A stretch of DNA of 64,000 nt from the IMG/VR virus record IMGVR_UViG_3300030098_004824, positions 1-64,000 of that record, one strand, 5' to 3'. This DNA comes from a virus. Below are positions 3,335 through 11,758 of this stretch, piece by piece. The position numbers and the translations under genes are program-made. Under the pieces are notes generated by a model, which saw only the letters and a program-made list of their open reading frames with translations, did no database searches and was not told the DNA's origin. Numbering within the stretch: the stretch's first letter is position 1; every line of letters begins with the position of its first letter.

Positions 3335-3556
3335 ATGATTAATTTAGACCAGACATACGAATCTTACTTAGATGGAAGCAAAAAGATGAGGATAGATGGT
3401 GTTGAGGAGAGAGTTAAGGCATACGGTTGGCATTGTGATGGTAATGATATTAAGGGACATTATGTAACAACAGAGAATTATCAGTTATTTTATAATATGG
3501 AAGGATTATTTACAAAGATGGTGGCACTCAGAGAACTGGCACAAACTACTGCGTGA
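3335..3556 (+). CDS. Hypothetical protein
   Basis: ORF track. Confidence 0.6.
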   Translation: MINLDQTYESYLDGSKKMRIDGVEERVKAYGWHCDGNDIKGHYVTTENYQLFYNMEGLFTKMVALRELAQTTA

Positions 3557-3599
3557 ATGAATATCTTTCTGGTATAATAGGATTATAGATAAAAATAAA

Positions 3600-4001
3600 A
3601 TGAAAACAGCACTTGCCGTATTGTTGGCACTCACACCTGTTTCTACACTTGCTGATGAGTATCAACCAGGTTATTCTTCTTCTAAGTCTTGTTACAGATC
3701 AGAATATAGAGAAGAATATATTCCAGGAACGGAGGATCAACCTGGATATGTAAGATCTTGGAAGGAAACTATTGAGTTCCCTTGTGATAGAAATAGAGCA
3801 ACAATTACAAGACCAACAAGAACAGTAGTAGAAAGACACTATGAGGTTGATGATAATGATTGTACTGATGGGAAAGTTGCTGGTGGTATTTTAGGTGGTG
3901 GTCTTGCTGCTGCTATATCAAGAGGAGATGGTAGATGGTGGGCAATTCCATTAGGTGTTGTTGCTGGTAGTGCTATTGGATGTGATGCTGCTGGAGGTTA
4001 A
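3600..4001 (+). CDS. Secreted/membrane protein with C-terminal glycine zipper (2TM)
   Basis: Signal peptide MKTALAVLLALTPVSTLA; GGILGGGLAAA...PLGVVAGSAIG. Confidence 0.7.
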   Translation: MKTALAVLLALTPVSTLADEYQPGYSSSKSCYRSEYREEYIPGTEDQPGYVRSWKETIEFPCDRNRATITRPTRTVVERHYEVDDNDCTDGKVAGGILGGGLAAAISRGDGRWWAIPLGVVAGSAIGCDAAGG

Positions 4002-4006
4002 ACAAA

Positions 4007-4035
4007 GGGGGATCGCCTAAAGTGTTCCAGTAGTG
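4007..4035 (+). repeat. 29-bp module-boundary motif, copy 1
   Basis: GGGGGATCGCCTAAAGTGTTCCAGTAGTG. Confidence 0.9.
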
Positions 4036-4480
4036 AGAAACAGTTGAGGGTCAAACTACTCTGACAGTTTTGAGAGGGATATGTGGTTCTACTGCCCGAA
4101 CATTCCAAGATTTCCTATATCCACATTAGTGCGAAGAAATGGTTATCTTATTAAGATCTCCTATACCAACACGAAGTTGAAGAAATGGTTATCTGATTAG
4201 TAGGGGTTCAGGTGTAAGCGATTCCCAGTAGGTAAATTTGGGCATATAGGTGAAACCTATGTCGATGCCCCACTCCCTCTCAAACAAGAAGCAGAGACAT
4301 GACGTTTGATTAAAATGACTTACCCCTCAATGTTTCTCCCACTAATTTGGGCAAGGATCTATGGTTGTCTCTGTTCAGCAGAGAAATTACGTCCTGTAAG
4401 TCCCACACACAAAAACGAGGAGATGGATGTGCCTCTGGGATCGCAACCCAAGAAAGAACTAACATCCGCTAGCTTTTTTA
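4031..4480 (+). ncRNA. Large structured non-coding RNA or 5' leader (family unknown)
   Basis: Long-range stems 4031-4051/4322-4344 and 4068-4079/4274-4284, hairpin 4240-4270, 46-nt tandem unit 4107-4198, crossing pairing 4290-4299/4366-4375, terminal hairpin 4425-4467 plus U-tract. Confidence 0.7.
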
Positions 4481-4491
4481 TTATTTTTTCA

Positions 4492-4662
4492 ATGGCATAC
4501 CACCATGAATGGAGTCAATCTTATTTTAATGGATTGACGTTTGAAGAACACCACATCAATAATGAGTGGTTTAATGGCACATTGTCAATGTTAAAAGATG
4601 ATGGTATATTATATGTACCAGTTCTTGACAAAGAATTTAACAGACAAGGTGAGGAAGTATGA
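4492..4662 (+). CDS. Hypothetical protein (probable true start 4492)
   Basis: ATG follows the structured leader and U-rich tract. Confidence 0.6.
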   Translation: MAYHHEWSQSYFNGLTFEEHHINNEWFNGTLSMLKDDGILYVPVLDKEFNRQGEEV

Positions 4663-4781
4663 CTGAAAAACATTTTATTAACAAAACTGATGAAATGATT
4701 GAAGATTTCATCGAAGAATGTGAAAAGGAAGCATCAAAATTAGAAGTCACAGTTGACTATTATCTTGCCGAGTTTGTTTGA
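4659..4781 (+). CDS. Small acidic hypothetical protein (40 aa)
   Basis: MTEKHFINKTDEMIEDFIEECEKEASKLEVTVDYYLAEFV, ATGA overlap. Confidence 0.6.
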   Translation: MTEKHFINKTDEMIEDFIEECEKEASKLEVTVDYYLAEFV

Positions 4782-4806
4782 CAAACTCGGTTTTTTTCTT
4801 TATAAT
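4768..4806 (+). promoter_or_regulatory. Terminator hairpin overlapping a consensus sigma70 promoter
   Basis: CCGAGTTTGT-TTG-ACAAACTCGG plus T-tract; TTGACA 4778, 17 nt, TATAAT 4801. Confidence 0.8.
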
Positions 4807-4831
4807 ACATACTATTAGTGAATACAAAACT

Positions 4832-5047
4832 ATGGCAGAAAAACTTTATACCATTTTAGAATTATCTACTAATGGTTGGCATCCAATAGAAGGAGAGGAT
4901 GTACAAATATCTAAAGCAAAATGTGATGAACGTATTAAATATCATTTGGGAAAGGGAGTTTCTCCTGAAAGATTAAAAGCAGTTGTTGATAACAGAAATC
5001 TTGGTAAAAAGGAGTTAGATTTTACAATTACAGGCGATACTGAGTAA
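4832..5047 (+). CDS. Hypothetical protein (start probably 4832)
   Basis: ATG downstream of the promoter. Confidence 0.6.
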   Translation: MAEKLYTILELSTNGWHPIEGEDVQISKAKCDERIKYHLGKGVSPERLKAVVDNRNLGKKELDFTITGDTE

Positions 5048-5385
5048 TGTATGAACCTCAAGTCGATGACTATGTAATTTGGAAAAGACCAAATGGCGAC
5101 TGGGAAGAGGGATGGGTTTACTTTAAGGGTGATCCAGTAGATAATGAGAAAAGAGTAAAGAGTGGATGGAATCCTGTATCACAGTATATCACTATTGAAA
5201 CTGGTGTTAGACCAAAAAAGGATTGTGTTTATACAAGTGGTAAACCAATGAGGCACAAAATGATTCATACATTATTATTGTGCAATAAAGACTGCTGGCA
5301 AGAATTAGAATATGTAAAGAACAGAAGAGATCAAGCAAGTCTTGATATGTATAAATCACAAGATGGAAGACATCCTGATTATTAG
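5047..5385 (+). CDS. Hypothetical protein
   Basis: TAATG overlap; stop abuts motif copy 2. Confidence 0.65.
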   Translation: MYEPQVDDYVIWKRPNGDWEEGWVYFKGDPVDNEKRVKSGWNPVSQYITIETGVRPKKDCVYTSGKPMRHKMIHTLLLCNKDCWQELEYVKNRRDQASLDMYKSQDGRHPDY

Positions 5386-11697: not shown

Positions 11698-11758
11698 AGG
11701 ATATACATCCATTTCTGGTTAGGAATCCTCACTTTAATTTCATTTCTTTATTTTGTTT

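Follow-up and report, generated by a model that had tools for sequence, protein, structure and literature searches.

Large ornate orphan RNAs of phages and prophages, such as GOLLD and ROOL, have Rfam families of their own, and some of them are reported to self-assemble. The pneumococcal BOX and the enterobacterial BIME/REP elements are multi-copy chromosomal mosaic repeats of simple hairpins that fold as RNA, and the small self-cleaving ribozymes share a layout of conserved unpaired bases with variable peripheral inserts. In the T4-like cyanophages, the RNA motifs manA (RF01745), wcaG (RF01761) and PhotoRC-II (RF01717) were described by Weinberg et al. 2010 (PMC2864571), and T4-type phages also carry promoter-early stem-loops (PeSL), cassettes that mediate gene shuffling (Arbiol et al. 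2010, PMC2839356). In 2023, more than ten thousand candidate structured RNAs were reported in viruses and phages (PMC10690425). Here we analyzed positions 4031-4480 (+ strand) of a 64,000-nt stretch of viral DNA, hereafter called the window, which comprises positions 1 to 64,000 of IMG/VR record IMGVR_UViG_3300030098_004824. The 77.6-kb record belongs to a T4-like cyanomyovirus, a P-SSM2-like Prochlorococcus myovirus whose closest cultured relatives are the Prochlorococcus phages P-SSM2 and P-SSM5 of the genus Salacisavirus. The analyzed stretch fills the gap between an open reading frame (ORF) of 133 amino acids at 3600-4001 (PHROG 767) and one of 56 amino acids at 4492-4662, both of which belong to a run of small + strand early genes. 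As shown below, it is a composite of four independent modules, named X, core A, M2 and M3, and it corresponds to a phage-specific, expressed, non-coding RNA of autonomous shuffled modules, each of which is present about once per genome.

A preliminary description, made from the letters of the window alone, had taken this stretch for one probably pseudoknotted RNA of ~440 nt, with a ribozyme, a riboswitch-like leader or a protein sponge as suggested functions. A large, structured and functional-looking non-coding RNA outside Rfam is indeed present, but the single pseudoknotted fold is not, the RNA being made of four separable modules with at least 12 helices in total. A BLAST comparison of the window with the fetched loci splits the stretch into blocks that occur independently. 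In the window, X encloses core A in its end loop and is followed by M2 and then by M3, and no further copies of X, M2 or M3 were found there. Elsewhere the modules occur alone, permuted or reciprocally nested, with X inside core A. In P-SSM2, X-M2-M3 and core A occupy two different intergenic gaps: the counterpart of window positions 4350-4489 lies upstream of gene PSSM2_070, and core A, preceded by its own TTGACC-17-TATAAT promoter, lies downstream of the same gene. In the genome of this phage, X-M2-M3 maps to 55.8-56.1 kb and core A to 56.7 kb. Two chimeric contigs (L088 and L094) carry the 3' half of X without its 5' half. Each module tolerates the others in its end loop or alongside it, since it is a hairpin-type domain with a covarying helix at its base and near-invariant internal loops and junctions.

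The G+C content of the stretch (0.41-0.43) exceeds that of its flanks (0.30-0.35), as had been noted, and the statement that it holds no credible ORF is borne out by the lack of any conserved reading frame. With the + strand the z-score of the minimum free energy was -1.45, and with the - strand -2.17; both values are weak, and they do not pick a strand. Because folding energy alone is unconvincing, the case for structure rests on the comparison with other phages. In that comparison the helices covary across more than 200 marine viral contigs, and the stretch is found at high depth in ocean RNA libraries.

The Rfam scan matched no known family either, and the unassigned status given to the RNA in the preliminary description stands. 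Rfam 15 gave zero matches at the gathering score over the whole window; at E <= 10, only chance matches to small nucleolar RNAs and microRNAs were obtained with the region 3900-4600 and the minimal P-SSM2 copies, and nothing relevant was found on three contigs carrying minimal X. The families covered were manA, wcaG, PhotoRC-II, GOLLD, ROOL, HEARO, IMES, twister, pistol, hatchet, hammerhead and the riboswitches. The core A sequence was not found in the literature searched: it is absent from the main text and the first 200 of the 438 supplementary files of Weinberg et al. 2010 (PMC2864571), in which Ocean-VI differs from it, and Steglich 2008 mentions P-SSM2 for its ORFs only. The modules represent at least four RNA families that are in no catalogue and are present in hundreds of viral contigs.

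Like GOLLD and ROOL, the locus specifies a multi-domain structured phage RNA of several hundred nucleotides, and a conserved self-complementary hexamer in M3 could allow it to form dimers; unlike them, it is smaller, consists of shuffled portable modules rather than one fixed architecture, and lies in a leader position, not beside tRNAs. With BOX and BIME/REP it shares the combinatorial use of a few modules at intergenic sites that are co-transcribed, whereas its modules are essentially single-copy per phage genome, more complex, and endowed with near-invariant unpaired cores. The resemblance to manA, wcaG and PhotoRC-II is closer in setting, as these are likewise orphan structured motifs with covariation and unknown function that lie in cyanophage 5' leaders and are almost exclusively marine (PMC2864571); in contrast to the window modules, they associate with particular gene classes. 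X, core A, M2 and M3 gave no match to these families at E <= 10, nest in one another, and precede unrelated ORFs. The likeness to PeSL (PMC2839356) lies in the intergenic position within the hyperplastic early region, in the small orphan genes and in the modular shuffling, and extends to the GGGGGATCG motif at 4007, a poly-G stem-loop beside a -10-like box. However, a PeSL is a ~100-bp promoter with a simple hairpin, present many times per genome (PMC2839356), whereas each module described here is an RNA of several helices, 55-220 nt long, whose loops are invariant and which has evolved by compensatory change, and core A occurs about once per genome.

Core A (4067-4285, +) is a three-way junction located in the end loop of X. 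It was defined by alignment A1, composed of 29 minimal copies, by RNAalifold, and by a covariance model, R1. The RNAalifold consensus of A1 contains 33 pairs, 11 of which show compensatory double changes. P1 (4068-4079/4274-4285), with the consensus GAGRGA/TCYCTC, includes the pairing of TTTGAGAGGGA (4069-4079) with TCCCTCTCAAA (4274-4284) that had been recognized previously. P2, formed by GTGG (4083-4086) and CCAC (4270-4273), switches to ACGG/CCGT. The earlier pairing of CTACTG (4089-4094) with CAGTAG (4226-4231) is P3, for which nine fully complementary versions exist among the relatives; P4 pairs CCC (4095-4097) with GGG (4203-4205); and P5 is the hairpin at 4240-4270, also seen before, which carries the tip GGTGAAACC. 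The RNA is read from the + strand, because on the opposite strand many of its G-U pairs would turn into A-C mismatches.

The unpaired core of this junction (4205-4239, +) is near-invariant and consists of the 22-mer GGTTCAGGTGTAAGCGATTCCC (4205-4226), whose final bases enter P3, and the joiner GTAAATTT (4232-4239). The exact 22-mer was found in more than 119 IMG/VR contigs. Since it had served as a search key, its conservation was rechecked on a sample fetched via a different module, and among the 22 cores found independently in this way it was exact in 13 and one base off in 9. The joiner and the P5 tip, which were never used as search keys, are invariant in A1. Given the near-identity of the 22-mer in the independent sample and the invariance of the joiner and the P5 tip, the loops and junctions of core A are held tighter than its stems. 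R1 recognized core A in the window with E = 4e-17 and detected one copy each in the window record, the 252-kb P-SSM2 genome and a complete 202-kb uncultivated viral genome (UViG), as well as one copy in each of two large fragments. A conserved 20-mer was absent from 185,579 prokaryote genomes (one per species; perfect matches, either strand) save for Siphonobacter. The Siphonobacter match was rejected as a true core A, R1 finding no match there, and is attributed to chance. By these searches, core A is restricted to phages, with about one copy per genome.

The P4 arm is the variable part of core A and, next to the end loop of X, a second site of insertion. In the window it spans 4098-4202 (+), where GAA (4098-4100) stands opposite AGTA (4199-4202), a frame that we take to be a loop-E or sarcin-ricin-like motif, and encloses a strain-specific insert of 98 nt (4101-4198) containing two tandem 46-nt hairpin units (4107-4152 and 4153-4198) that are 78% alike. 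The portion 4110-4190 of the insert had no match among 120 loci. Seventy distinct P4 arms were collected, with lengths of 12-229 nt: the GAA...AGTA frame was present in 43 of the 70, an X-like domain lay inside the arm in 22, and a minimal hairpin was seen in 5. The X-like domain in the P4 arm represents the reverse nesting of the arrangement found in the window.

The module that surrounds core A in the window, X, is split by it into two halves. The 5' half (4031-4066, +) comprises one strand of P1 (4031-4051), the P2 strand TCAAAC (4051-4056), the P3 strand CTCTG (4059-4063) and the beginning of the end loop, GAC. The 3' half (4286-4344, +) starts with the end of this loop, AGAAG, which is followed by the P3 strand CAGAG (4292-4296), the sequence ACATGAC, the P2 strand GTTTGA (4304-4309), an internal loop of 13 nt and the second P1 strand (4322-4344). 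P1 is the outer stem of the preliminary description, and it covaries among the relatives (GTTACAGGT/ACCTGTAAT, TTAAGGGT/ACCCTTAA and GAGCGAAAC/GTTTCGCCC). The two long nested pairings were also recovered by an inverted-repeat finder. We collected 53 distinct copies of X from viral contigs; compensatory changes occur in P1, P2 and P3, and each copy, when folded singly, gives the same three-helix hairpin. Single-sequence folds were used here because the covarying stems misalign, so that MAFFT combined with RNAalifold recovered P3 only. In the minimal copies the end loop is GAC-NN-AGAAG, and in the window the same loop encloses the entire core A. A direct comparison is offered by contigs L191, without the core, and L069, with the core in the X loop, in which X is otherwise near-identical. 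X is an RNA family in its own right.

M2 (4350-4404, +) consists of an outer stem, AGGA (4354-4357) with TCCT (4392-4395), an inner stem, TCTCTG (4368-4373) with CAGAGA (4379-4384), the loop TTCAG, invariant internal loops, and the tail GTAAGTCC (4397-4404). Among 25 distinct copies, TCTCAA/TTGAGA replaces TCTCTG/CAGAGA in the inner stem, and AGGG/CCCT or AAGA/TCTT takes the place of AGGA/TCCT in the outer one. In other phages M2 is found inside core A P4 or inside X-like domains, sometimes twice.

M3 (4416-4479, +) contains a hairpin of GAGG (4417-4420) and CCTC (4432-4435) with GGATGT (4425-4430) in its loop, a small hairpin of GGG (4437-4439) and CCC (4447-4449), the palindrome GCTAGC (4468-4473) and a T-tract (4474-4479). 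The small hairpin covaries (CGG/CCG, GGG/CCC, GTGG/CCAC, GTAG/CTAC). The complementarity of GGATGT with ACATCC (4462-4467), followed by the T-tract, is present as described previously; as it crosses the GAGG/CCTC hairpin, it could be a pseudoknot, a candidate that covariation cannot test because the bases of GGATGT/ACATCC are invariant. As for a terminator at 4425-4479, the GGATGT/ACATCC stem has an interior of 31 nt, the palindrome separates this stem from the U-run, and the terminator scan does not call it.

Right after ACATCC, a 6-nt palindrome was found in 119 of 121 M3 copies (e.g. L001:2609-2614), and it is of six kinds: GCTAGC, CACGTG, CCTAGG, CTATAG, CCATGG and TCTAGA. Such conservation of self-complementarity with changing letters suggests either RNA-RNA pairing between two molecules or a role at the DNA level. 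A second nearby copy of the same hexamer was seen in only 1 of 124 loci, so there is no intramolecular partner. M3 dimers calculated with RNAcofold gained -3.5 to -7.7 kcal/mol, mostly through generic hairpin-to-duplex swaps, and hexamer-to-hexamer pairing was obtained only for the M3 variant of the window.

M3 is closely followed by coding sequence. An ORF of at least 30 codons begins 0-24 nt past M3 in 111 of the 124 copies, and these ORFs, including the one at 4492-4662, belong to at least 17 unrelated families. In the window the next ORF (56 amino acids, 4492-4662, +), which has no PHROG match, begins 12 nt past the T-tract. An ATG at 4423 lies directly after GAGGAG, and its frame (MDVPLGSQPKKELTS...) runs into ORF 4492 in both the window and P-SSM2. 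Among 95 distinct M3 copies, this frame is open and in frame in 24 and stops before the main ATG in 33, and the changes in the M3 hairpin are non-synonymous yet preserve pairing. The frame is thus not kept across the 95 copies, and the reading of M3 as an N-terminal extension or as a leader peptide was rejected; a short upstream ORF starting at ATG 4423 is possible.

Some of the long-range pairings proposed earlier did not hold. The pairs crossing the outer stem, AGCAGAGACA (4290) with TGTCTCTGTT (4366) and GACGT (4301) with ACGTC (4389), fail the covariation test: their sides change independently in 22 loci, giving 1-4 mismatches with zero compensation. Local covarying partners exist instead, namely CTCTG (4059-4063) with CAGAG (4292-4296) in X and TCTCTG (4368-4373) with CAGAGA (4379-4384) in M2. 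An alternative pairing of TGCCCGAA with either copy of TTTGGGCA likewise lacks support from covariation. The UGCCCGAA/UUUGGGCA pairing was rejected, as a change of the 5' strand of P5 to GGACU or GGUCU is matched by its local 3' partner but not by GCCC, which does not vary; the second UUUGGGCA copy (4346) is not conserved.

The expression of the locus was analyzed by placing the contigs of four marine metatranscriptome runs, from three studies, on positions 3400-5100 and summing their depths. The summed depth was 0-20 over the flanking ORFs, 0-1.5 at 3970-4026, 5-27 at 4027-4083 and 8-112 at 4084-4197. It then rose to 2760, 618, 614 and 113 in the four runs at 4198-4254, was 596, 168, 181 and 37 at 4369-4425, and fell to 0 in all four runs at 4483-4539, which is not proof of termination. 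The RNA cover begins in the 4027-4083 bin, just past the GGGGGATCG..TAAAGTGT motif, and in the four runs contigs that are 88% or more alike reach only to about 4482. A contig of 156 nt with 0 mismatches covers 4074-4226, including the unique insert, and was present at depths of 85, 30 and 44 in three runs; contigs are uninterrupted across 4074-4226 and 4197-4279. Contamination with DNA would give equal cover on the flanks. In ocean RNA libraries the locus, although non-coding, ranks among the stretches of such a phage with the heaviest representation.

The reading that we favor, tentatively and at somewhat less than even chances, is that the locus gives rise early to a stable RNA derived from a leader. 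Its invariant loops would bind either a protein or another RNA, and it would work mainly in trans as a decoy or scaffold. The host RNA polymerase would make this RNA early, from just after the PeSL-like motif to the U-tract 12 nt before the next ORF. Its compact modules would render it long-lived, so that the leader would accumulate well above the body of the messenger RNA (mRNA). The invariant loops would serve as docking sites for one or more conserved partners, either host or phage protein or RNA, and the RNA would act mainly in trans whatever small gene follows, with M3 and the U-rich tract doubling as a portable generic leader for the next gene. Partner docking and a role independent of the gene are suggested by the near-invariant unpaired segments, the covarying stems, and the indifference of the modules to position and downstream gene. 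A more far-reaching version, which we regard as unlikely, is that a portable kit of modules forms one abundant early RNA, nestable either way without loss of function, whose loops would capture different host factors and whose 3' hexamer would join two RNAs. If true, nature would here provide an RNA scaffold or decoy, open to evolution, that serves to take over the host or to counter its defences, and phages would have a kind of RNA that is so far undescribed.

Several points weigh against a trans-acting decoy or scaffold. The excess depth of the core is inflated, because the depths sum many strains and the core is the most conserved part, and the contigs show neither RNA ends nor strand. M3 is not a full terminator, since RNA contigs of other strains run through it into unrelated sequence, and at the RNA ends in the window the scan detected no canonical sigma-70 promoter and no simple terminator. 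Moreover, all modules were found in sense-strand 5' leaders, with an ORF close behind and no promoter between, a position equally compatible with a purely cis role. Such a role is the main rival explanation, which we consider possible but rather doubtful: the modules would form a purely cis-acting modular 5' leader that shields the 5' end of early transcripts against RNase E or RNase J and sets read-through and translation of any ORF behind it, and the RNA would be a decay-resistant by-product. Besides the location of the modules on the sense strand between a promoter-type element and an ORF, it is supported by the first helix beginning ~5-8 nt after the -10 boxes in many relatives, by the position of M3 15-24 nt before the start codon in most copies, and by the fact that each of nine copies of the upstream motif has its own 5' hairpin. 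However, a generic stabilizer needs no 22-nt unpaired segment kept at 21-22 of 22 identities while the stems drift, each genome has a single core A instead of one on many of its early genes, and the modules work equally well when nested far from the 5' end.

The other explanations are less likely than both the trans-acting RNA that we favor and the purely cis-acting leader. That the modules are mainly DNA-level recombination linkers of the PeSL type, which shuffle early genes among co-infecting phages and whose folding is incidental, seems improbable. Chimeric copies exist (L088 and L094), the modules are permuted among phages, they lie in a hyperplastic early region beside a repeated poly-G motif, and PeSLs are known to mediate such shuffling (PMC2839356); but the compensatory changes, with G-U pairs specific to one strand, show that a single-stranded fold has been under selection, the loops are more conserved than the stems, and the RNA is abundant. 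In addition, core A cannot pair with a second copy in the genome because it is single-copy, and the shuffling probably results from the repeats without being what they are for. Still more improbable, in our view, is that core A or another module is the aptamer of a riboswitch that controls early genes in response to a global metabolite or signal. Core A does have the traits of an aptamer, with a three-way junction, a near-invariant junction and bulge, covarying stems and an arm of variable length; the modules lie in 5' leaders; a U-tract follows core A P1 in some copies, such as that of P-SSM2; and the cyanophage leader motifs manA and wcaG have been suspected to be switches (PMC2864571). Against this, there is no consistent downstream gene family, and the placement independent of the gene disfavors a classical riboswitch. 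No expression platform is conserved either, P1 being followed by a U-tract, by other modules or by the 3' half of X; the UGCCCGAA/UUUGGGCA alternative pairing is lost when P5 varies; and no Rfam riboswitch was matched at E <= 10. We give the least credence to the view that the early polycistronic RNA is cut into units at one of the modules, which would be either a self-cleaving ribozyme of a new type or a sequence recognized by a processing nuclease. The conserved unpaired nucleotides framed by covarying helices, the variable peripheral inserts and the intergenic position, resembling punctuation, would suit such a role; yet no Rfam 15 ribozyme family was matched at E <= 10, the RNA contigs run unbroken across the two intervals 4074-4226 and 4197-4279, and no cleavage site is marked.

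The most abundant phototroph of the ocean loses a large part of its numbers to T4-like cyanophages, whose early take-over region is almost entirely unannotated. The reciprocal nesting constitutes a natural experiment, indicating that each module folds and works alone. The modules are compact targets of 55-120 nt, with about 120 nt in minimal core A and about 100 nt in minimal X, and a possible source of portable RNA parts. If they bind host factors, they would add a new layer of phage-host interaction in Prochlorococcus, which has very few protein regulators.

The motif upstream of the RNA (GGGGGATCG..TAAAGTGT.., copy 1, 4007-4030, +) is outside the folded RNA and is given as context only. It combines a PeSL-like poly-G stem-loop with the possible -10 box TAAAGT, which is the only possible -10 element upstream of 4031, as the promoter scan found no canonical sigma-70 promoter there. 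The window contains nine copies of this motif (4007, 5388, 6348, 7423, 10247, 11669, 13166, 14421 and 16681) of the form GGGGGATCG-NN-TAAAGTGTYC-TTATAGTG, and within a few bases of each copy there begins a 5' hairpin, different from copy to copy, with closing strands of the GTGAGG...CCTCAC type. The motif also precedes core A or X in other contigs, and it resembles a promoter or boundary in the style of PeSL with a family of interchangeable leader hairpins. Many relatives have promoters of the TTGAC-17-TATAAT type, in which the -10 box is followed, 5-8 nt further on, by the first helix of core A or X. Behind motif copy 6, the leader hairpin includes ATACATCCATTTCTGGTTAGGA (11703-11724), a small module that elsewhere is found inside the P4 arm of core A (L027, L100 and L024). 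Downstream of the RNA, by 300 nt, lies a textbook PeSL-like unit (4767-4806), in which a terminator hairpin of 11 bp with a T-run overlaps a perfect TTGACA-17-TATAAT promoter.

With respect to the neighboring genes, the upstream ORF 3600-4001 matches PHROG 767, labelled 'cAMP phosphodiesterase', with E = 8.5e-46. This label looks doubtful, because the N-terminus of the ORF is signal- or lipoprotein-like and its C-terminus is glycine-rich. Neither transfer RNA nor transfer-messenger RNA genes were found in the window.

Two further observations concern the modules themselves. Contig L015 (IMGVR_UViG_3300006332_000008) is the sole contig seen with two core A copies, ~900 nt apart, and it also carries two X and two M3 copies; the doubling is possibly a recent duplication or a recombinant. 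Finally, the word AUGGUU (or GUGGUU, or UGGUUAGGAG) recurs in the window at 4139-4144, 4185-4190 and 4361-4366 and at similar sites in other modules. It sits unpaired or at the edges of stems in several modules that are unrelated to one another, namely core A, the insert of core A, M2, X-like domains and the ACAUCC module. The recurrence may reflect binding of the same factor or an ancestry that these modules have in common.

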